From Alphaproteobacteria bacterium (GTDB lineage: Bacteria; Pseudomonadota; Alphaproteobacteria; SP197): 64,000 nt of DNA. Shown here one piece after another: positions 1,823-12,963 of the stretch; position 1 is the first letter of the stretch; every line of letters starts with the position of its first letter. The notes beneath the pieces are model-generated. The model saw only the letters and a list, made by a program, of their open reading frames with translations. It made no database searches and was not told where the DNA came from. The stretch spans positions 32,001 to 96,000 of the forward strand of contig OZ219746.1 of the NCBI GenBank assembly GCA_964291265.2, in the 5' to 3' direction. Both the position numbers and the translations under genes were made by a program.

Positions 1823-2293
1823 TTAGCGATCCGCGCATCGTTGTCGATTTAGGAACTCACGGCGTTGCTTGCGGCTGCCGGCAAATGGATACAATAACCG
1901 CTGTCCTGTTGCCTTAGTTGGCAGAATGTCCTTGTCTTTGAAGTCGTCACGGAGTTTGCCGTCATTTGAGCAAAGAACTTTGGCGCCGCTTGCAAGTGCT
2001 AATGACAAGATATGTAAATCATTTGATCTTGGGGTCTTTTGAGCCAATTGACTGTCAGTAATATAAAGCTGGTCCGCTGAGATTTTTCGAAGATGTCCTC
2101 CTTGGTCATACCGTCGGATAAGATCCATAACGGCGCTATTGTTTCGAAGTTCTGTGAAATACTGCCCAGCGCTAGAGACCGCCAGTATCCCGTGCCTACT
2201 GCCAATCCACGATAGAAACAAATTGTCACCTTCGCCGCGTCGTTTCACCAGTACAGGAAATGAATCTGCATCAACGATAGCGACCACGCACAT
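1823..2293 (-). CDS. PIN-domain ribonuclease-like protein
   Basis: N-terminal AIVDAD strand and C-terminal SNDLHILSLA...VLCSNDGKL acidic PIN motifs. Confidence 0.7.
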   Translation of the reverse strand: MCVVAIVDADSFPVLVKRRGEGDNLFLSWIGSRHGILAVSSAGQYFTELRNNSAVMDLIRRYDQGGHLRKISADQLYITDSQLAQKTPRSNDLHILSLALASGAKVLCSNDGKLRDDFKDKDILPTKATGQRLLYPFAGSRKQRREFLNRQRCADR

Positions 2294-2306
2294 TTGCTTT
2301 ACCTAT

Positions 2307-3569
2307 CTACTTGAGGCCCAGTAGGCGCTCTGTTTCTGTCAAGAAAAACTCTCGATAGGTACTAGGTGGATCCAACACATTTCCCATTGAATCGACCGAG
2401 ATATTGTGAATTCTGGTCTCGGTGTTATCTTCATAGTTTTCAAAATACAGGATCACAAGGTCTTCTGGTTGCAACACTTGTTGCAATACACATAATCTGA
2501 AACGATCGACGATATGATCACTGTGGGTTTCAATAATGTAATCGTGTGGTCCTTCGGCCATATATTGGGCCAATTTAGCCTGTGCCACTGGATGAACGTG
2601 GACTTCTGGTTGTTGCAGCAAAAAAATACTTGGTGTGTCAGTTACAGCTATGGCGTGTATAAAAGGGAGTATTGAATGCACACCGTAACCCACATCAATT
2701 AGATTATGGGTGCCAGCGGCCGTTGTGACCAAAACATCCGTTGCTTCGCCCAAGTCGATTTCAGTCAACGTGATGTCGCTCCACAAACCTAATGCCGTGC
2801 CGGCCTGTGCGATCAGTGAGCGTTCCGAAGAATTGCTTAAATACACCGGGGGCTCCTTGTAACTGCGCAGCCTGGGAGGCGCATGCGGCTCAGGAGCTTT
2901 AACGTGAAAACTAGGATGTGCGGGCAATGGCATCTCGGAACGGAAGAAGTTAATGAATTTACCGAAGTTAATGATTTCTTCCGATGTGCTTGGTACACAT
3001 TCTCGTTTTGCAAAAATTGTGCTATCCGCATTGTATGGGAAAAAACCGTGACGCACGTTACGCGATAACCAAGTAGAAATGGGTACAAAGGATATTTCCG
3101 CCCACTTCATAGAAAAATCAAAATTTGGACCATGAAACACCAAACGTTTATTTTTACTGCTGTCACCATTATAGATTGACATTTCGATGTGCGCAGACGA
3201 AGCATCCTTTGCAGCAAAGGAAAACTCGGTGCGTGTTTCATAAGGCCGTCCCTTATTGTCGCGTCCGAAGGAAAACATGGCTGATGAGTGAATGTGATCG
3301 TCATATTGACCAGTAATTGTAAAGTTGGAAGAGCCCAAACGGGCTATCGAGTCGTATTCACCCATGGAAAATGGAGGTTGGTCAAAGATGTGATTGTCAG
3401 GCAAGTCAACTAAATTGGAGAGGTGAGCGAATGCATTGAAGCAGCCCAGAAAAGTGGATTTACCGACGCTGTTTTCACCAACAAGCAAGGTGATGCGACC
3501 CAGACGTGCGTGTTGGGGAGAGTTGAAACGGCGAATATTCTGGAGAGACATTTCGCTTATACGAGGCAT
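2307..3569 (-). CDS. ABC/AAA-type ATPase (AAA_15/AAA_21-like, DUF3696-like C-terminus)
   Basis: Walker A GENSVGKS, signature DVGYG, Walker B region LLQQPEVHVHP, IETHSDH. The ATG at 3569 overlaps the upstream TAA. Confidence 0.85.
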   Translation of the reverse strand: MPRISEMSLQNIRRFNSPQHARLGRITLLVGENSVGKSTFLGCFNAFAHLSNLVDLPDNHIFDQPPFSMGEYDSIARLGSSNFTITGQYDDHIHSSAMFSFGRDNKGRPYETRTEFSFAAKDASSAHIEMSIYNGDSSKNKRLVFHGPNFDFSMKWAEISFVPISTWLSRNVRHGFFPYNADSTIFAKRECVPSTSEEIINFGKFINFFRSEMPLPAHPSFHVKAPEPHAPPRLRSYKEPPVYLSNSSERSLIAQAGTALGLWSDITLTEIDLGEATDVLVTTAAGTHNLIDVGYGVHSILPFIHAIAVTDTPSIFLLQQPEVHVHPVAQAKLAQYMAEGPHDYIIETHSDHIVDRFRLCVLQQVLQPEDLVILYFENYEDNTETRIHNISVDSMGNVLDPPSTYREFFLTETERLLGLK

Positions 3570-5056
3570 TAGCGATCTCCTGAAGACGGCAGAAAACGTG
3601 TCAGCAGATTGCCGCACTTTATGAGAAAACGACTAATGAAAGAGTCTACAGCTTTCGTTTCGTGCGGTGCATTAAGGAGGAATGGGTACTTGAACTGATC
3701 GCCGAGGGCTGTCTTTCCGACGACGGAACAGTGTTCATTGCACTCCAGAGCTTCCACGTCAAGGCGATTCGGTATCATACTGTAGTGCTGTCGACCCGCG
3801 CGATCTGGCCACCAAGTGTCAGCTATCACAAGTCGTATCATCGCGACGACCATTGAGGTCGCAAGGTTTGCGCAGAACGGGAAGACGTTCTGGTTGCGTG
3901 GCTCATGCTCGGATTCAGTGAGGTTGTGGACATATGATGGATCATCCAGAGAGCCGTCGACATCGAGAACAACATCGGAACTGGTATATTGGCCGTCACA
4001 TCGCAGACAACGAAACATCGGACCGATGGTCGTTACACTCCAAGCCGCCTGGCCGAGTGTGCCGTCCGGCTTGTTGTCGATGAACACGCCACCGGATATA
4101 ACGGGAATACAATGTGCATAGGCGACGTGGTTCAAAAGATCCTTGGGAAGCGGGCGATCCACGGCGGAGAATAGGATATCGCAATCAAGAACGGCGGTGA
4201 AGGCGCGACTGTCTTGAATGGGCAAGGCGAACGTTTGGATAGAAAAGCCAGCGGCGGTCGCCGATCGGCTTGCCTGCTGGGCGACGAGTTCGACTTTTAA
4301 TGAGCCGACATCGTTTTCGGAGGCGTACATCAAGCGGTCGAGGTTGTGGGTCTCTATCCGATCCGGATCGATGATCGTGACCCTTTCCATGCCCATCCTT
4401 GCCAAGGATTCGGCAATCACGCAGCCCACGCTTCCGACTCCGACGATACCGAAATGAAGACCGGTGAGGTCTCGTTGGCGTTTGATACCCCAAGTGTCGA
4501 TCGTACGCTGTAGAAATCTGCGTCGCTCACCTGCAGGGCGCTGTTTAAACGTGACGCGAAAGTGGCGTCCGACGATGCGAACCCTTTCGCACCATGTTCG
4601 ATTGAAGGTTTCGCCGTCCCAGTTCCAAAAACGAGCGCTCCAACTGTGGTCCGTGCCAAGCGTCAATCCAACGAGAGGCAGTCCGGTTGCACGAGCGGCA
4701 GGTGAGATTCGATCTCGTTCGGCGACGATGTCGAGCACGCTCATGTCCTGCCAGCCGTCGGTAAAGTGGCTGTGCATGAATGCCAGCCCGGCCCCCCGAA
4801 GGATGGCAATTCGTGTCGCACGGGTCAAGTAAGTTGGTTCGAAACTCGTGCCACCATGCAAGTGTCGTTCACCTTCACCCGGGAGCAATATCTCGAATAC
4901 GATGGCAGCTTTTCTGCTGGCCCCCGTTGAGGGACGCCACAGGGCAAAGCAAAGTTCCTCCTGCATGTATCCGGCGTTCACGTGCCGGAGCAGATGAGCG
5001 GATGCGCTGTCGTGCGCCTCTTGGGTCAGAACAGTATCGAAGATCAAATCTGGCAC
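3569..5056 (-). CDS. JAB peptidase - ThiF/E1 adenylyltransferase fusion (BubCD-like)
   Basis: N-terminal JAB motif E...HSH-x7-S-x2-D; E1 motifs GVGSVG and DPDRIETHNLDRL; CLRC and CNEHC Zn ligands. Confidence 0.85.
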   Translation of the reverse strand: MPDLIFDTVLTQEAHDSASAHLLRHVNAGYMQEELCFALWRPSTGASRKAAIVFEILLPGEGERHLHGGTSFEPTYLTRATRIAILRGAGLAFMHSHFTDGWQDMSVLDIVAERDRISPAARATGLPLVGLTLGTDHSWSARFWNWDGETFNRTWCERVRIVGRHFRVTFKQRPAGERRRFLQRTIDTWGIKRQRDLTGLHFGIVGVGSVGCVIAESLARMGMERVTIIDPDRIETHNLDRLMYASENDVGSLKVELVAQQASRSATAAGFSIQTFALPIQDSRAFTAVLDCDILFSAVDRPLPKDLLNHVAYAHCIPVISGGVFIDNKPDGTLGQAAWSVTTIGPMFRCLRCDGQYTSSDVVLDVDGSLDDPSYVHNLTESEHEPRNQNVFPFCANLATSMVVAMIRLVIADTWWPDRAGRQHYSMIPNRLDVEALECNEHCSVVGKTALGDQFKYPFLLNAPHETKAVDSFISRFLIKCGNLLTRFLPSSGDR

Positions 5057-5424
5057 CAGAAACGAAGAAGATGTCTAATAAGGAATGTTTTCATGTTCCT
5101 TTCCGAAGCTGGGATAGAATCCCAGAAATCACTGGGTGGTACGCTGAAGGCTTTCCAATGGTGATTGTCATAGGTGAATGATGAATGCACAGGAAGTTTC
5201 GCATTCGGGAGGTCAGCAACATAGATAAAATGTGGTGGATAATCGGGATAACTGTCTTCCTGGAAGCCGATTGCGATGGTGAAAAATTGATCCTTGTATC
5301 TTCCTGTTGGAACTGATTGGGTCAGCGTAACGACTGTTTGCTGAATAAAGCCGTCTGCGGATACAATTTGCGGTTCGTGTCCCAGCTCTGCAAGCTCGGC
5401 ACAGATTAAATCGATAGGCTTCAT
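5044..5424 (-). CDS. Prokaryotic E2/UBC-fold protein (BubB-like)
   Basis: YPDYPPHFIYV E2 motif and WKAFSVPP segment; lies between the Ubl and E1 genes with overlapping stop/start. Confidence 0.7.
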   Translation of the reverse strand: MKPIDLICAELAELGHEPQIVSADGFIQQTVVTLTQSVPTGRYKDQFFTIAIGFQEDSYPDYPPHFIYVADLPNAKLPVHSSFTYDNHHWKAFSVPPSDFWDSIPASERNMKTFLIRHLLRFWCQI

Positions 5425-5903
5425 GGATCTGGAGCAAATGCCACGGGGGTTGCCCCGGAGTGTACCGCCAAGAATTCATCGTCATTCGTAATATCGACAA
5501 TGTCGATCAAGTTGCGATATTTTATACCGGTATTGATGTTTTCAAGGATGTAGCTGTTGAGTTGGTTGAGGTCGATGCTGGCGGACTTCCCGGCAGCTCG
5601 GAGGATGTTTTTTACGGAGAGGGTCGCATTAGTCGTTGTTTGTTGCTCTCCATTGACCTTGTAGTGAATCACCGTGTCAAGGGTCGGCTTTGAATCATGG
5701 TCCCTTTTTTTTGTCGTAACGCGGTCGCCGGAGTGAATGTCGATATTCTGCTTGGGATCGAGATGTTCGGTGCCGCCTTGAGAAATCAAGAGAAAATGGT
5801 CTGGGGACAAGCCAGCGATAGCAAGGACTTCTGCAACGGTTAGGGAGACCTTGCGAGCGGAGTGTGGTTTGTCGTCTATGAAGAACTCAATGGAGTCTGC
5901 CAT
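5421..5903 (-). CDS. Multi-ubiquitin (tandem beta-grasp) Ubl protein
   Basis: Two related units (FFIDDK...LTVAEVLAIAG; YKVNGE...LSVKNILRAAG), C-terminus HSGATPVAFAPDP, AGAGGA RBS before the ATG at 5903. Confidence 0.8.
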   Translation of the reverse strand: MADSIEFFIDDKPHSARKVSLTVAEVLAIAGLSPDHFLLISQGGTEHLDPKQNIDIHSGDRVTTKKRDHDSKPTLDTVIHYKVNGEQQTTTNATLSVKNILRAAGKSASIDLNQLNSYILENINTGIKYRNLIDIVDITNDDEFLAVHSGATPVAFAPDP

Positions 5904-6864
5904 GTTATCCTCTTTGGCATTAGGCAAAAAGATGTTGCAAGCAGGACGGGGTTGGCTGGCTTGTCCACTTTCTACTATGTCACTACATCGTTTAGGTCGA
6001 AGGATCAAGTGATGGCGTCTGAATTCTAGAGCGAGGGGTAGAAATGTCAAGCGCGTGGAACGGATCGCGGGGAACGTGTCGGACTTCTCCTTCGGTCTCA
6101 AGGCGGAGCGAAGGGAGAATGGTACCCCGGCACCGAAGCAAACCACTTCCGAGATGCGCAACGCAGCGCCGTAGGCGACAACGGTTGCCATGCTGTAGCG
6201 CACGTCGGTGGATCGCCTGGATCAGGTGCTTGAAAGCCCGTCGGGAGTTGTCCGCGGCAGGCGTTCGGGAGCCCGGCGAGAACGAAGATGTTCGACGTTC
6301 TAGGGCTGATTGAGCACACTACCATAGAACAGGCGGATCGTCATGGTCCGGAACGCCATGGCCGATGACGGCATTTCTACGAGACGGCGGCCGGGGAGGG
6401 AGAGGCATGAGCCGCCCGTTGCCGGATTCAGCGCTTGTGCGTCTTTCGATCTCGGCGACGACGGGGAATGGGCGCAGGTCGCAGAGCGGGCTCGGGAACA
6501 GGGGAAGTCGGCCTCGCGCGGTTTGTGGATGCGGTGCTGGCGGTGGCCGATACCCGCACGGTCGAGGGTGAACGGGACCTGCAACCCGAAGCCCGTCCGG
6601 CAAGGCGAACTGCTCTGAAACGGGCCCACCTCGGAAGACGCGGCAGCCGAAGACGGTGGACCACGATCTCGGACCAAGGAGCGAAATCATCTGCTGTTGC
6701 GCACAGTGGTACCGAGTTGGCAGATTGCATCCGGCAGGAGCGGTGGCTACCGCAGGCGTGACCGGTCCCGAGAGCGACGCGGAGATGGGACGGGAACTCG
6801 AAAACGTGGAGACCTGATCGTGAACGAGGGCTGCGGTGCCAAGGGCGGGCGATACAGGATCATC

Positions 6865-7000: not shown

Positions 7001-7131
7001 CCGAAGCCATGTTGGCAGGAAAGGACGCCCGGGAGACCTCAAGCACGATGACCTGCAAGCGTCCGGTCTTGCCCCGGTTTTCGCTCGGCATTCTCCCAAG
7101 CGCTGTCATCCCCTCATGAGCGAACGCTTAC
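7001..7131 (+). repeat. 131-bp IS right-end repeat, copy 1
   Basis: Highly similar to 8703-8833 (CCGAAGCCAT...GAGCGAACGCTTAC); supplies the rpn TAA stop. Confidence 0.85.
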
Positions 7132-7598
7132 CGCTGCCTGGGCCTGGCGGCCAGCACATCATCAAGACTTGGGGCGGCCAGCACCGCCTCCGCCCAGGCT
7201 TCCAGTTCGGCGGCCGACGCGCCGCGCACCCGCTCGCGGAACGCATCCGGCACATCACCGAAGCGCAAGGACAGTTGACGAAGAAGAAGTTCCGCGAGGG
7301 CCTCGCTCCGGCCTCGTTCAAGTCCCCTCTCGAGTCTCTCGGCTCTTCCTCTCTCGATACCCTCGGCTCTTCCCCTCTCGATACCCTCGGCTCGTCCTCT
7401 CTCGATTCCCTCGGCTCGTCCTCTCTCGATACCCTCGGCTCGTCCTCTCTCGATTCCCTCGGCTCTTCCCCTCTCGATACCCTCGGCTCTTCCCCTCTCG
7501 ATACCCTCGGCTCTTCCCCTCTCGATACCCTCGGCTCTTCCCCTCTCGATACCCTCGGCTCTTCCCTGTTCGACCCAGGTTTGTGCGATCGTGCCCAT
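7128..7598 (-). CDS. Putative intragenic small Rpn (RpnS-type antitoxin) from an internal start
   Basis: In-frame ATG (MGTIAQ) at 7598 preceded by GGAGG (7604-7608) with 5-nt spacing. Confidence 0.55.
   Translation of the reverse strand: MGTIAQTWVEQGRAEGIERGRAEGIERGRAEGIERGRAEGIERGRAEGIERGRAEGIERGRAEGIERGRAEGIERGRAEGIERGRAERLERGLERGRSEALAELLLRQLSLRFGDVPDAFRERVRGASAAELEAWAEAVLAAPSLDDVLAARPRQR
7338..7565. repeat. 24-bp tandem repeat (about 9-10 copies) encoding ERGRAEGI
   Basis: Unit CTCGGCTCTTCCCCTCTCGATACC repeated head to tail with no spacers. Confidence 0.95.
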
Positions 7599-8702
7599 CA
7601 ACACCTCCCAATGGTCCGGCTTCGTCCGGCGCAAAGACGCCTCCAGCATGGCCGGCGTCAGGCCCTTGTGCTCGGTCATGTAGCGCACAATATGGTGCTC
7701 GAAGTCGCTCCCTGCAAGCAGCCCGTCCATGATCACGTCGAGAAGATCGGGCGGTACCTCCTCGGCAAAGGCAAACCTGAGCGCCAGAAGAGCGGACCGC
7801 ACCTCGGGCGAGGTCGACGGCCGGTCCGGCGCCATCTCCCCGAGGTCGTGCACCACATAGGCGAACTCCCTGACGAACGACTTCAGCTTCTCGGGCGCGT
7901 CGATCATCTTCAGCACCGAGCGCGCCGCCTTCCAGCGCCCCCGGCCGTGATAGAAGACCAGGGGGATGATCGCCGGCAGCTTGATGTCGTTCCCGCCGCC
8001 CTCGCTCTTGCTCCGCTCGCTCTTGCTCCGCTCGATCTCGCGCCGCCAGATGTTGACCATGTATCCCAGGAGCTGGAGCGGCGTCGCGGCGTCGACGTAG
8101 CTCTTGTGTTCGAGCAGCACGTAGAGGCTTAGCATCTTTGCCGTCCTTCAATCTCACCCGGAACAGCGCATCGCACTGGGTGGTACGGGCGGCCTTGTCG
8201 ACGAAACTCTCCCCAACCGCCTCGAACGGCGCCTCGGGATCGAGGAGTTCAGCCACCTTCCGCGGCAGGTAGTCGGTGAGCAGAGAAGCGGCACGGGACG
8301 GTTCGGAGACCAGTGCCCGGAACAGCGTATCGTGTCGATTCACCGGAAGTCTCACCGAGCGAGACCCCGGCGTTTCAACGGGCATCGTGCTCACGGGTTG
8401 GAAGGGGGAAGGTGTTCGTCATGGCGGCACCCTACGCCGAACAGCACCAGGGCGGCAATCGCGGCGCCTGACCCGGGGTGAGGCCTGCCAGACGTCAAGA
8501 CCTCGATGGCGCTTGTTCCTCAGGTCGCCGCCATGCCCGTACTTCACTCGGGTGGCCTCAGCCCAAGCTATGGCCCCTCCCTATGCTGGGTTGTGGAACT
8601 GATAGAAGACCAGTGATCACCCGCGATTTTGGCAACAAACTTCAAGGTCACCAACCCGCCCTCGTCCCCGCCTTCGATACCTCAAGACCGCTTCGCTGCC
8701 TG

Positions 8703-8833
8703 CCGAAGCCATAGTGGCAGGAAAGGACGCCCGGGAGACCTCATGCACGATGACCTGCAAGCGTCCGGTCTTGCCCCGGTATTCGCTCGGCACTCTCTCA
8801 GGCGCCGTCATCCCCTGATGAGCGAACGCTTAC
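8703..8833 (+). repeat. 131-bp IS right-end repeat, copy 2
   Basis: Similar to 7001-7131 and followed directly by the target duplication GGATCATC. Confidence 0.85.
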
Positions 8834-8924: not shown

Positions 8925-9392
8925 ATGACTGACGTGTTGCTGTCGAACGATGAGCTCAACCGACACCGATTGGCCTTGAAGCGGGTGAGGAATCCCAATG
9001 CCCGTTGGCGGGCACAACCCGGACGGCACAAACAGCGGAATTTCAATGCCGTAACGGAAGACGGGGCGGTCTACCGGATCTACCAACGGCAGGATCTGGA
9101 TGACCATCTGGACTTCTCGTGCGGCTTGGTGCTGACGCGGTGCCGCGGCAAGCCGTTGAGCTTGGTTCGCTACAACGGGGCGAGTCACGTACACGTGAAG
9201 ATCCGCTATGCTTGTCATGTTCATCGTGCTACGGCCGAGGCACTCGCGGCCGGGAGGAAAGTCGACAGCCACGCCGAAGGAACGGATCGATACAGGACCG
9301 TGGAGGGAGCGCTTGCGTGCCTGATGGAAGATTGTGGCGTGGAGGGTCTTTCCGCGAATCATGACGAGCTGGACTTGTTCGATGGCGCTTGA
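8925..9392 (+). CDS. Hypothetical protein, DUF6978-like
   Basis: LVRYNGASHVH...CHVH His-rich motif; overlaps the start of the downstream DUF1828-like gene. Confidence 0.55.
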   Translation: MTDVLLSNDELNRHRLALKRVRNPNARWRAQPGRHKQRNFNAVTEDGAVYRIYQRQDLDDHLDFSCGLVLTRCRGKPLSLVRYNGASHVHVKIRYACHVHRATAEALAAGRKVDSHAEGTDRYRTVEGALACLMEDCGVEGLSANHDELDLFDGA

Positions 9393-10164
9393 TCATGTGC
9401 AACTGGAAAGGCTGCTGTGCGAGCGCCTGTGCGCAGAGGTCAGGCTTCACCGGCGCGAGGACGATGTGCTGATGATGGAATCGCCATTCACCTTTCCGGA
9501 TGGCGACCACTTCCCCATCTACTTGTCCGAAACGGCGGCCGGAGGCGTGAAACTCAGCGATCGCGGTCACACCCTGATGCATCTGAGCTACGAGCATGAC
9601 GTGAAGTTGTTCTACGAAGGCGCGCGCGCGTCTCTTCGTGAGCAAATCGTGCGTGAGAGCGGCATTGATGAAGACGAGGGCATCTTCTCCATCGAGACGC
9701 CGCTGGACCAGGTGGCGGGCACGCTGTTCAGGTTCGGGCAGGCATTGACGAAGATCCATGACCTGACGTTCCTGAGCCGAGAGAGGAGCGCCTTGACGTT
9801 CGATGAGGACCTGTGCGAGCTGGTCTTCGCCATCCTCGACGAGGAAGTCGTCGAGAGGGGCTACATACCGCCTGAGGTTCCGGACGCCAGACACTATCCG
9901 GTGGACTACCGTTTTGAGGGGAAGGACGGGATGTCGGTGTTCCTCTACGGGATTCCGGGCCGTGACAAGGCGCGGTTGAAGACAATCATGCTGTCGCATT
10001 TTCTGCTTCACCGTGTGCCTTTCGAGTCGGTCCTCGTTTTTGCAAATCAGCAGGAGATACCGAGACTCGACCTCGCGCGGCTGACCAATGTTGCCGGAAC
10101 CGCGGTCGCCTCGCTCGAGGCGGAAGACGATCTGCGCCGAAAGCTCGAACGCCTTGCTGCGTGA
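9382..10164 (+). CDS. DUF1828-like domain protein with a nuclease-like C-terminal region
   Basis: ESPFTFPDGDHFPIYL...VKLSDRGHTL; C-terminal HYPVDYRF. Confidence 0.7.
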   Translation: MALDHVQLERLLCERLCAEVRLHRREDDVLMMESPFTFPDGDHFPIYLSETAAGGVKLSDRGHTLMHLSYEHDVKLFYEGARASLREQIVRESGIDEDEGIFSIETPLDQVAGTLFRFGQALTKIHDLTFLSRERSALTFDEDLCELVFAILDEEVVERGYIPPEVPDARHYPVDYRFEGKDGMSVFLYGIPGRDKARLKTIMLSHFLLHRVPFESVLVFANQQEIPRLDLARLTNVAGTAVASLEAEDDLRRKLERLAA

Positions 10165-10957: not shown

Positions 10958-12963
10958 ATGAAGATTGCAGCCCTGTACGCGCGGGTCTCGGGCGAGCAGC
11001 AAAGGGATAGCAACACGATCGCCAGCCAGACCGAGGCCTTGGTTGCCTACGCCGAACGCCATGGCTACTGCGTGGCGCCCGACATGGTCATCGAGGATGA
11101 CGGCTACGGCTATACCGGCGCGGTTCTCGAACGCCCGGGGCTGGAGCGTGTCAGGGACCTTGCCGCGGAGGGGCGCATCGAGGCCGTCCTGGTCCATGCC
11201 CCGGATCGCTTGAGCCGCCGCTATGCCTATCAGGTTCTGATCATCGAGGAGCTGGCCCGCCAGGGCGTTGAGACCGTGTTCCTGAACGCGCCGTCGATGG
11301 AAACCCCAGAAGACCATCTCCTCGTCCAGTTCCAGGGAATGATCGCGGAATACGAGCGGGCGCAGATTCTGGAGCGTTCCCGTCGCGGCAAGCGTCATCG
11401 GGCGCGACGCGGCGAGGTCGCCGTCCTCGCCGGCGCACCCTATGGCTACCGCTACCACAAGAAAACCCAGGACAGCGACGCTTTCTACGAAATCTCCGAA
11501 CCGCAGACGTCCGTGGTTCGCGACATCTACCGCCATTACACCGAAGATCACGTCAGCATCGGCGCGATCGCTCGCACACTCAACGAGCGCGGTGTCCCCA
11601 CGTCTTCCGGGCGCTCGCGCTGGGAACGCTCGGTGGCATGGGCGATCCTGCGGAATCCGGCGTACAAGGGAAGGGCGTGCTTCGGCAATACCCGGGTGGC
11701 GCCGCGCCGCAGCGTGCGGCCTCTGCGCCGCCGCGACGGGTTCGCCGACAGCAACACTGCCGGTCACGAACGGCCGCGGAAGGCTGGATCGAGATCCCGG
11801 TGCCGGCGATCGTCAGCGAAGAGACCTTCGCCCTCGCCGAAGAACGGCCGCAACGCAACAAGGTCTTCTCCAAACAGTCATGAACGTCGGCGTGCCTGCT
11901 TACCCCGCGCCATGAAACGTGAGCCTGTTGTGGCCGTTGGACAAGTGCGTTGATCCGGCGTATTGGTGCACGATCATGCGAGCAGGTGGAGGTGGGTGAC
12001 GAGGACGCTTGTATTTCGACGATGTCCTGACGCCTGAACGAACCAGACCCTTGATGGCCATAGACGCGGGGTAGCCGGAAAGGTCCAAGGTTCGTCAACA
12101 GGCGTCAGCCAGAACCACCACACGGCGGTCAGGCATGCGCCTGACCGACAGGTCGCTCGCGCCCTGTTCAACAAAAGGCGTCGCAGGGATCAGAAATGTT
12201 TCACAGCAAGCGTAGGACCAAAACACCCAGCGTCTCGCAGGGGCTCGTGGCGTGCGGCAAATGCGGCTACGCGCTGTATCGCACGTCGGCCCGAACCACT
12301 GCCCGCAAGATCTCCTACTACCGCTGCCTGGGTTCCGACGCCTGGCGCCATCTCAACGGCCCTCTGTGCAACAGCCGTCCCGTGCGCCAGGATCTGCTCG
12401 ATGACATCGTATGGACCGAGCTGGTCCGCTTGCTCGAAGATCCGGCGCTCGTGAAAGCAGAGATCGACCGACGACTGGAGGCAGCCCGTGTCTCCGATCC
12501 AAGCCAGTAGCGCGAGGCCGACCTTCGGCATCGGCTGATCAGGGTCCGCAAGGCCATCGACCGCCTCGTCACGGCCTATCAGGAGGAGTTGATCACCATC
12601 GACGAGTTGCGCAACAGAACGCCCGAGCTCCGCCGTCAGGAACAAGCGCTGCATCGCGAACTGCAATCCACTGTCGATCGCGCCAAGGATCGAGAGACTT
12701 ATCTTCGGCTCGCCGAGACTCTGACCGGCTTTCTGGCGCGGCTGCATTCGTCAGCCGAAACTCTGGACATCGCCGAACGGCAGCGTATCGCCCGGCTCCT
12801 CGTGAAGGAGATACTTGTCACCGAGGACAAAATCACTATCCGCCATTCCATCCCGATCTCGGGCTCGCCGGGCGCGGACCCGTCGAAACCCGACAACGGC
12901 GGAACCGAAGGCGAGAGTTACCTTTCGCGTTCAGGGCGTCGTGGCGCCGCCATGCTTCAATGA
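10958..12963 (+). pseudogene. Large serine recombinase (resolvase + recombinase + Zn ribbon), disrupted
   Basis: YARVS, ERPGL, DRLSR, GAPYGY, ILRNPAYKG, CGKCG...YYRC; frameshift near 11775, insertion 11874-12206, in-frame TAG at 12508-12510. Confidence 0.9.
11874..12206. mobile_element. 333-bp non-coding structured insertion of unknown family
   Basis: Splits FSK/RRTK of the recombinase; CAA at both junctions; stems 12027-12044/12089-12108 and 12126-12147. Confidence 0.65.

Follow-up and report, generated by a model that had tools for sequence, protein, structure and literature searches.

The five-gene operon described here joins a ubiquitin-like (Ubl) modifier, an E2-like protein and a JAB-E1 fusion protein to an ABC-class ATPase and a PIN protein. 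The operon may form one defence circuit, in which the ATPase would sense the Ubl tag, unleash the PIN ribonuclease and arrest the infected cell; we give this reading an even chance of being right.

Gene layout

All positions refer to the window, the whole 64,000-nt stretch of alphaproteobacterial DNA that was analysed. Five intact open reading frames lie on its minus strand behind a candidate promoter:

6023..6050, minus strand: promoter-like site, sigma70-type TTGACA-16-TAGAAT (consensus match and conservation)
5421..5903, minus strand: Ubl gene, 160 aa (Pfam and Atlas Multi_ubiq, C-termini)
5044..5424, minus strand: E2-like gene, 126 aa (predicted model, BubB match, alignments)
3569..5056, minus strand: JAB-E1 gene, 495 aa (ThiF; BubCD by sequence and fold)
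2307..3569, minus strand: ATPase gene, 420 aa (Pfam AAA_21/AAA_15, PADLOC NsnB)
1823..2293, minus strand: PIN gene, 156 aa (Pfam PIN in the family, Atlas clusters, alignment)

The junctions listed in the original prediction are present in the letters (ATGA at 5424-5421, TAATG at 3571-3567, a 13-nt gap at 2294-2306), as is the lower GC content, which amounts to 0.45-0.55 per gene, where the window as a whole has 0.646 and the genome 0.64-0.65. At the E2/E1 junction the genes do overlap as described, but the proposed 13-nt extent (5044-5056) is the less likely one: since GTG 5056 is absent from relatives, whose JAB-E1 opens at the codon matching TTG 5047, a 4-nt overlap (TTGA) is likelier and TTG 5047 is the likely start of JAB-E1 by sequence comparison. 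The promoter-like site agrees with the sigma70-type consensus in 11 of 12 positions (6050-6023); it is common to close relatives together with a GAGGA ribosome site 5' of 5903, and similarity to relatives ends upstream of the putative -35 box. A longer Ubl starting at GTG 6203 was ruled out, as both conserved sites fall inside that stretch. Comparison of the window with loci L018 and L001 gave dN/dS values of 0.11-0.34 for all five genes.

The five-gene order, whose recurrence in other genomes had been proposed as a check, was found in 11 of 14 GTDB loci, so the arrangement is not due to chance. The combination had not been recognised as a named system, and PADLOC, NCBIfam and a literature search agree: the five-gene unit has no match in either library, and no description of it was found in the literature, bioRxiv supplements lying outside the scope of that search. 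The domain calls of multi-ubiquitin, E2 fold, JAB-E1 and PIN are likewise upheld by profile, fold and alignment evidence; the ATPase, called an AAA ATPase in the original prediction, is not AAA+ and belongs to the ABC class, with a degenerate Walker B.

The ubiquitin-like trio

The Ubl-E2-JAB-E1 trio is closest to Type I Bub, not Bil. Type I Bub, formerly 6E.1/DUF6527, is represented by the Citrobacter BubAB-BubCD-BubE system (10.1101/2024.11.21.623953; PDB 9EA4, 9EAV), with which the trio shares the order Ubl, E2, JAB-E1. The JAB-E1 protein has the Type I Bub layout of a JAB peptidase fused to an E1 of the homodimeric type. It matches ThiF (E 2e-30), and BubCD is its best match by sequence and HMM; in Foldseek the BubCD chains match over the whole length (E 3.5e-26, TM 0.60-0.65, about 435 columns), the next protein following at E 8e-12, although the sequences are only about 20% identical. 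Across 62 sequences (numbering from 5056), the JAB residues E33/H95/H97/S106/D109, the E1 adenylation site, the Zn cysteines and the loop tyrosine Y375 are conserved. As in Type I Bub, a catalytic Cys is missing: the E1 crossover loop carries Y375 in 62/62 sequences and a Cys in 1/62. Y375 would be equivalent to BubCD Y370 by position only, the loop 375-395 being modelled with pLDDT <50.

The predicted model of the E2-like protein adopts a UBC fold (pLDDT 96), and its top VIA match is BubB (9eav_D; Z 9.6, rmsd 3.5, 114 aligned); Foldseek returned no match below E 0.001 and ranked BubB second at E 0.12. The protein has no Cys, and W90 and S94 are invariant in an alignment of 58 (S94 in 58/58), so that the pairing of loop Tyr and E2 Ser is conserved as in Type I Bub. 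In the Bub E2, however, the Ser is accompanied by a His at +2 and an Asp, whereas the S-x-H motif is missing here: the window has S-x-P, as do 118/120 close homologues, and S-R-P or S-H-N occur in relatives. A conserved His upstream of S94 (H65) is found instead, kept in 119/120 homologues.

The Ubl matches Multi_ubiq below the Pfam cut-off (E 0.009) and in 30/30 Atlas matches (best 0.92; recognition value low); a PDB sequence search gave nothing useful. In textbooks, ubiquitin-like modifiers are recognised by their terminal glycine. CBASS Cap2 substrates may offer a precedent for an Ala end, one that the literature consulted did not confirm. Here a Gly-ended Ubl was found in 0/120 homologues, while (T/A)PVA is present in 116/120 and 68 terminate there. 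In the wider loci, x-x-V-(A/S) forms the end of the Ubl or its join point in 58/61 relatives, with the stop codon straight after V-(A/S) in 29/61; separate and fused Ubl-E2 forms both occur among them, as in Type I Bub. In Bub, by contrast, the terminal glycine of BubA is conserved. Cleavage at an upstream Gly (between SG and ATPVA), which would expose a glycine, was ruled out by the 29/61 loci that stop after V-(A/S). Also contrary to it, variability starts only past the V-(A/S) residue, Ubl-E2 fusions join at V-(A/S), and no Gly lies within three residues before the motif in 12/58 automatic picks (two of the 12 being mis-picks).

Another difference concerns BubE, whose gene is present in every Bub operon (10.1101/2024.11.21.623953). 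No BubE (PF20137) was detected in the genome itself (100% complete), in five other genomes or in 225 flanking ORFs, whereas the search detected it in the Caulobacter control. The non-glycine Ubl end and the missing BubE had both been overlooked in the earlier reading. CapH/CapP-like genes stand beside distant relatives, which is again Bub-like: an M78 peptidase of this regulator type was found upstream in 20/43 unlinked loci scanned. CapH/CapP were not seen beside the one clade that carries the ABC ATPase-PIN pair, itself a departure from Type I Bub.

The original prediction had spoken of a Bil/Bub architecture, of which the Bub half stands. Bil (BilABCD, types I and II) shares a Ubl with two beta-grasp domains, an E2, a JAB and an E1, and the lack of an E3. 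Unlike the fused, cysteine-free protein here, the Bil JAB and E1 are separate, the E1 is Cys-dependent and a terminal Gly is required (for BilA, 10.1101/2022.05.11.491447); Bil has neither ATPase nor nuclease.

The ATPase and PIN pair

Judged by its motifs (Walker A GENSVGKS, GYG signature, Walker B LLQQPE, H-loop ETHS), the ATPase is an ABC-class, OLD/NsnB/HEC-03-like protein with an unusual QQPE Walker B, the QQ of which is found in 112/120 homologues. Its best PADLOC match is NsnB (6.5e-34, residues 286-405 only), besides PDC-M55A, HEC-03B (5.8e-21 over the C-terminal part) and partial matches to AriA, PtuA and GajA; the DUF3696-like tail is weak in Pfam (E 0.036, under the cut-off). A clade-specific insert spans residues 151-215, and no stand-alone copy matches its profile, which was built from linked ATPases and shows difference, not binding.

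The PIN protein is a probable PIN-domain ribonuclease. Pfam PIN matches 10/19 family members (best E 3e-6), the window copy staying under the cut-off at 0.035, and the Atlas places the protein in PIN clusters at 0.96 and 0.92. D8, E48, D92 and D117 are conserved in the 19-row alignment and D111 is variable. Alignment with two single PIN sequences by hhalign was weak (probability 3% and 31%), and a PDB sequence search returned nothing useful.

Three groups of known systems resemble this pair. In HEC-03, an ABC ATPase gene is likewise followed by a PIN gene, VapC-like in that case, and HEC-03 is a validated anti-phage system needing both genes (10.1101/2024.01.29.577857). The ATPase here belongs to a distinct subfamily with the QQPE Walker B and is joined to a Ubl cascade; the HEC-03 PIN model (HEC-03A) did not match the window PIN and matched 1/10 family members weakly (E 0.007), whereas a true HEC-03 PIN elsewhere in the same genome scores 2e-61 on that model. 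Menshen NsnB-NsnC (PMC12065111) shares the GxG signature, the degenerate Walker B and a PIN-fold partner gene directly 3' of the ATPase, and may also share the DUF3696-like tail. Its sensor NsnA (ParB-DUF262) is missing: no NsnA was matched among the five proteins by the PADLOC library that detects it at L017, and the Ubl trio stands in its place with JAB-E1 upstream. The single 156-aa PIN keeps the acidic residues D8/E48/D92, whereas NsnC comprises an inactive PIN and a C-terminal nuclease effector domain, and the NsnC profile did not match the window PIN.

Septu employs an HNH nuclease. PARIS, Septu and Gabija as a group use TOPRIM or HNH nucleases, and none is associated with Ubl machinery; their likeness to the pair lies in an ATPase that restrains a nuclease (summarised in PMC12065111).

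Linkage and the proposed circuit

Trees and counts exclude 14 near-duplicate rows (95% or above) as well as E1s that are partial or broken. On a quick tree of 62 E1 rows, the ATPase requires a single gain and is present in 15/15 rows of one clade (SH-aLRT 99). The linked loci span Pseudomonadota, Acidobacteriota and Binatota, with identities down to 50% for E1 and 35% for the ATPase, and the linked ATPases form a single, long-stemmed clade (support 100) that adjoins stand-alone pairs. Over 14 loci, the distances between E1s correlate with those between ATPases (Spearman 0.68; 2/2000 permutations as high). One gain followed by joint transfer would give the same trees without functional coupling.

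Both modules also occur apart, so each can stand alone. The trio was found without the ATPase-PIN in 71/80 metagenome loci, 47 of which have at least 1.5 kb downstream, and a stand-alone ATPase-PIN pair lies in the same genome (C2:2008888-2010725) and in many other places. Considering these stand-alone pairs and the validated analogue HEC-03, the pair is a captured module. On these grounds it is possible, if somewhat unlikely, that the operon holds two independent defence modules travelling together under a common promoter, the trio tagging phage or host proteins by itself (Bil tags phage structural proteins in this way) and the pair acting as an HEC-03-like sensor-effector. A single gain accounts for the tree pattern, defence genes are often fused into one operon (10.1101/2024.01.29.577857), and three loci (L002, L004 and L152) have a broken PIN next to an intact Ubl-E2-E1 trio.

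Independence is opposed by the behaviour of the linked ATPase, which carries the distinct conserved insert and was never found away from Ubl genes. A search of 358 genomes gave 28 ATPase matches, of which all 10 strong ones adjoin E1; the eight new loci among them all have Ubl, E2 and E1, and come from one bacterial family, so that they are not independent. No E1 was found within about 1.5 kb of the 18 weaker matches, nor any Ubl, E2 or E1 in the eight of these re-read with about 5 kb per side. Adjacency also survives in L156, where the pair is inverted and the ATPase takes a different tree place from its E1. In addition, a predicted complex of ATPase, PIN and Ubl(76-155) gave the Ubl a score of 0.45, whereas the controls, among them one with another protein in place of the ATPase, reached 0.00 at best; runs shared at least 90% of contacts, and partner pLDDT was at least 84. 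The score mark was reached by 116/157 solved and 2/215 mismatched pairs, with 18/157 solved pairs and both mismatches at the mark but not above 0.60; the tool calls the range of 0.45 oftener wrong than right unless the contact is likely beforehand, and a three-chain prediction falls outside its calibration. The modelled Ubl-ATPase contact is weakly supported. Of the idea that Ubl conjugation controls the RNase, co-inheritance and this one weak prediction are what speaks in favour.

In the proposed single circuit, a cysteine-free Bub-type cascade would attach an alanine-ended Ubl tag to proteins. JAB would trim the Ubl after Ala155 and probably also take the tag off, since no BubE was found and JAB is intact where trimming is not needed. 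By analogy to BubCD Y370 and BubB S333, E1 would adenylate the Ala carboxylate and hand the Ubl via Tyr375 to E2 Ser94 as oxyesters. The Gln-Gln Walker B suggests that the ATPase may be an ATP-bound scaffold with little hydrolysis, which would hold the PIN via the DUF3696-like tail; the same is predicted for Menshen NsnB-NsnC. When infection alters the Ubl pool, in the simplest case because conjugates appear, the ATPase would read this change and the PIN would be freed or activated, whereupon the ribonuclease would arrest the phage-infected cell. In a guard alternative, loss of free Ubl would fire the PIN.

The ATPase or PIN might themselves be covalent Ubl targets, activated or silenced by the tag and reset by JAB, which is improbable. 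Bub and Bil lack an E3, and direct choice of targets by the E2 has been proposed for both (10.1101/2024.11.21.623953); translational coupling would supply enzyme and target together, and the weakly predicted contact would fit. However, no invariant Lys exists in the 19-row PIN alignment and only the Walker A lysine is invariant in 64 ATPase rows, and relatives without the ATPase have the same Ser in E2 and Tyr in E1.

Least expected of all is a switch for stress or dormancy that has nothing to do with phage, or an Ala-ended Ubl that is never conjugated to proteins and is only adenylated or passed to RNA or a small molecule. DNA-damage regulators are associated with Bub operons (10.1101/2024.11.21.623953), and phage protection by them had not been demonstrated according to a 2026 paper (PMC13373217); 12 pattern matches to relatives in viral contigs gave none confirmed, and the Ala/Ser end is atypical beside the glycine of BilA. 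Against this, the patchy distribution (E1 in 1/22 congeners), the low GC and the restriction-modification, toxin-antitoxin and Abi genes neighbouring related loci fit mobile defence cargo, and relatives keep the JAB, E1 and E2 sites as a set. Plasmids hold 11 distant JAB-E1 matches (29-39%) and 12 partial ATPase matches.

More tentatively than the single circuit itself, the operon may represent a separate ubiquitination branch working through a terminal Ala/Ser and Tyr/Ser oxyesters; in this clade the ABC ATPase would then be a dedicated tag receptor that replaces a Menshen-type DNA sensor and gates the PIN RNase. If true, bacteria would possess a reader of a ubiquitin-like mark that converts tagging into a cell-fate signal. 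For Bub the chemistry has been solved, but neither the targets nor the biological role; an operon with its own likely effector would provide a direct readout of tag function through PIN toxicity or RNA cleavage. Widespread Ubls natively stopping at Ala/Ser, with intact E1, E2 and JAB sites, would extend the terminal-glycine rule and would escape diglycine-remnant proteomics.

Operon layout and surroundings

The original prediction described five co-oriented genes with close junctions in low-GC DNA, all of which was borne out in the sequence:

5903–5421, minus strand: ubiquitin-like protein (Ubl)
5424–5044, minus strand: E2-like protein
5056–3569, minus strand: JAB-E1 protein
3569–2307, minus strand: ATPase
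2293–1823, minus strand: probable PIN protein

The E2 and E1 genes overlap, but E1 probably starts at TTG 5047 rather than at GTG 5056 because relatives open at that position (E1 residues are numbered here from the GTG). The fourth gene, proposed to encode an AAA ATPase, proved to be ABC-class. Sequence comparison revealed a near-consensus promoter (6050–6023) and a ribosome site common to close relatives, with similarity stopping just upstream of the promoter. Purifying selection acts on every one of the five genes (dN/dS 0.11–0.34, three pairwise comparisons per gene). E1 is present in only one of 22 congeners, and the copy there falls in a sister group that has no ATPase. The operon DNA is mobile accessory DNA. 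Host names such as Ca. Poriferihabitaceae suggest marine-sponge symbionts.

Several other elements lie nearby. A YhgA/Rpn-like transposase gene (7128–8394), broken across two frames, is flanked by 131-nt direct repeats (7001–7131 and 8703–8833, 93% identical), and a 24-nt tandem array occupies ~7274–7609. A two-gene pair (8925–10164, plus strand) encodes a 155-aa unknown protein and a DUF1828 protein matching the PADLOC candidate PDC-M24B (E 2e-12), and a possibly truncated serine recombinase (10958–11953, plus strand, 331 aa, Resolvase and Recombinase domains) lies 5 kb from the operon.

The tagging trio and its probably Ala/Ser-ended Ubl

Citrobacter BubCD is the best solved relative of JAB-E1 both by sequence and, along the whole length, by fold (E 3.5e-26, TM 0.60–0.65, ~20% identity). 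In a set of 62 non-redundant E1s there is no variation at H95, H97, S106, and D109 of the JAB, at N238, R241, K254, and D300 of the adenylation site, or at Y375 of the loop; JAB E33 is kept in 61, and a Cys occurs in the loop of one. The E2-like protein has no Pfam match and only weak profile matches to eukaryotic E2s (best E 0.002), and its confident predicted structure (pLDDT 96) is closest to BubB (Z 9.6, rmsd 3.5, 114 aligned), with further UBC folds next in rank. Its S94 is invariant (58/58). The E2 carries S-x-P rather than S-x-H, and a conserved His lies upstream. Y375 and S94 mirror the Tyr/Ser oxyester relay demonstrated for Bub (10.1101/2024.11.21.623953), and by analogy the trio would use the same chemistry.

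Many E1s carry a variable basic, hydrophobic helical tail (residues 473–495, window ~3572–3640), modeled with low confidence, which might be a membrane-facing helix. A small DUF3892 gene lies directly downstream of E1 in one ATPase-free subgroup (L034, L043, L044, L047, and L053, handles of related loci) and upstream in L067. Distant JAB-E1 relatives (29–39%) were matched on plasmids (H1–H11) of Rhodococcus, mycobacteria, other actinomycetes, and one haloarchaeon.

None of 120 close Ubl homologues ends in Gly; (T/A)PVA occurs in 116, and 68 stop exactly after it. Among 61 non-redundant wider loci, x-x-V-(A/S) is found in 58, followed by a stop codon (29), a short variable tail (19), or an E2 fusion (10), and three lack the motif. 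From these counts, the mature Ubl therefore very likely ends in Ala or Ser (Ala155 here). The JAB is intact where trimming is unneeded, and thus it probably also takes the tag off.

According to the same paper, all Bub operons carry BubE and the terminal Gly of BubA is conserved; its operon table is restricted to DUF6527-containing operons, and a term search of that table found no ATPase, PIN, or nuclease entry. DUF6527 was not found in the window's own genome, in five other genomes, or among 225 flanking ORFs.

The ATPase–PIN pair

The best PADLOC matches of the ATPase are Menshen NsnB, PDC-M55A, and HEC-03B. Its Walker A and H-loop are intact, but 112 of 120 homologues have QQ in Walker B, which in an ABC protein suggests that nucleotide is bound with little hydrolysis. 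The assignment of the last gene draws on the Pfam PIN domain (10 of 19 family members), PIN clusters among its Atlas neighbours, and conserved D8, E48, D92, and D117. C2, H94, and C153 (window 1823–2293) are conserved alike in linked and stand-alone PINs, possibly as a metal or redox site.

The pair also occurs without the trio. One such pair, a HEC-03-type pair, and a Menshen system lie on C2, one sequence of the window's own genome (G000):

G000:C2:2008888-2010725 (L015:8889-10726): stand-alone QQPE ABC ATPase and PIN belonging to this wider family; neither Ubl genes nor NsnA present
G000:C2 ~383150-385020 (L016:5152-7019): HEC-03-type pair, PIN model E 2e-61
G000:C2 ~628140-631370 (L017:4138-7369): complete Menshen NsnA-B-C

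The PIN of the stand-alone pair matched no named PADLOC PIN model. Such pairs recur in 5 of 400 other class-level genomes as well as in numerous members of a single Acidobacteriota family, and are possibly an undescribed two-gene system by themselves.

In its workings the operon parallels Type I Bub combined with HEC-03/Menshen, yet it is a member of none: the terminal Gly, BubE, and the S-x-H of Type I Bub were not found, nor was the NsnA of Menshen, and its PIN fails the HEC-03 PIN test. HEC-03, an analogous ABC–PIN pair, is a validated defence system (10.1101/2024.01.29.577857), and the DUF3696 tails of NsnB are predicted to clamp a PIN-fold domain (PMC12065111). A non-phage or non-conjugating role of the operon is highly improbable. 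We found no description of the trio with ATPase–PIN or of the Ala/Ser-ended Ubl family in the openly accessible literature searched; passages of PMC11601603, PMC1779556 (class 6e), 10.1101/2022.05.11.491447, PMC13373217, and 10.1101/2022.03.31.486616 mention neither.

Linkage of trio and pair

The five-gene order recurs, with ATPase and PIN following E1 in 11 of 14 GTDB loci. In metagenomes the ATPase follows E1 in 9 of 80 loci and is absent from 71, 47 of which have at least 1.5 kb of downstream sequence. In the E1 tree the ATPase was acquired once and retained in 15 of 15 clade members (support 99); linked ATPases form a single clade (support 100) beside stand-alone ones, and distances among the E1s track those among the ATPases (correlation 0.68). 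Searching from the ATPase, E1 adjoins 10 of 10 strong and 0 of 18 weaker matches; eight new linked loci, all from one family, each hold the full trio. Longest-contig size, used as a rough proxy, coincides for 40 when the top 120 clusters of E2 are set against the top 120 of ATPase. That trio and pair are independent modules travelling together is rather unlikely, although each demonstrably exists alone and a single gain would yield identical trees without coupling.

Lesions fall mostly in PIN (L002, L004, and L152): an insertion splits it in L002 (10310–11610), and in L152 (5900–6600) it is cut after ~19 codons. An IS605/TnpB gene separates E1 and ATPase in L009 (8508–9734). ATPase and PIN are intact beside a Ubl frameshift in L005 and a late in-frame E1 stop in L007, each genuine or an assembly error. 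In L156 (1386–5536, in a relative's genome, G484), whose Ubl ends in TTVA, the adjoining ATPase–PIN pair is inverted and convergent, and its ATPase branches away from the position of its E1, which suggests re-pairing or rapid change after inversion. Of the loci scanned, 20 of the 43 unlinked and none of the 14 linked ones have a CapP-like M78 peptidase upstream (at most 2–3 ORFs picked per locus).

Complex prediction of ATPase, PIN, and Ubl(76–155) scored 0.45 against 0.00 for the best control and 0.00 with the ATPase replaced, in calibration terms a range (≤0.60) holding only 18 of 157 solved pairs and both mismatches, for a three-chain job unlike the calibration set. In that set, 116 of the 157 solved pairs and 2 of the 215 mismatched ones attained the mark itself. 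Agreement between runs extended to at least 90% of contacts, and partner pLDDT was at least 84. The prediction lends weak support to a Ubl–ATPase contact. Conservation is higher in the second Ubl domain than in the first (0.68 versus 0.48), which binding to E1 could by itself explain. That the ATPase or PIN is itself covalently modified by Ubl is improbable. A single circuit, to which we give an even chance, would pass the Ala-ended Ubl from E1 to E2 by a Tyr/Ser relay; the ATPase would read the Ubl tag, and PIN would be set free, leading to growth arrest.
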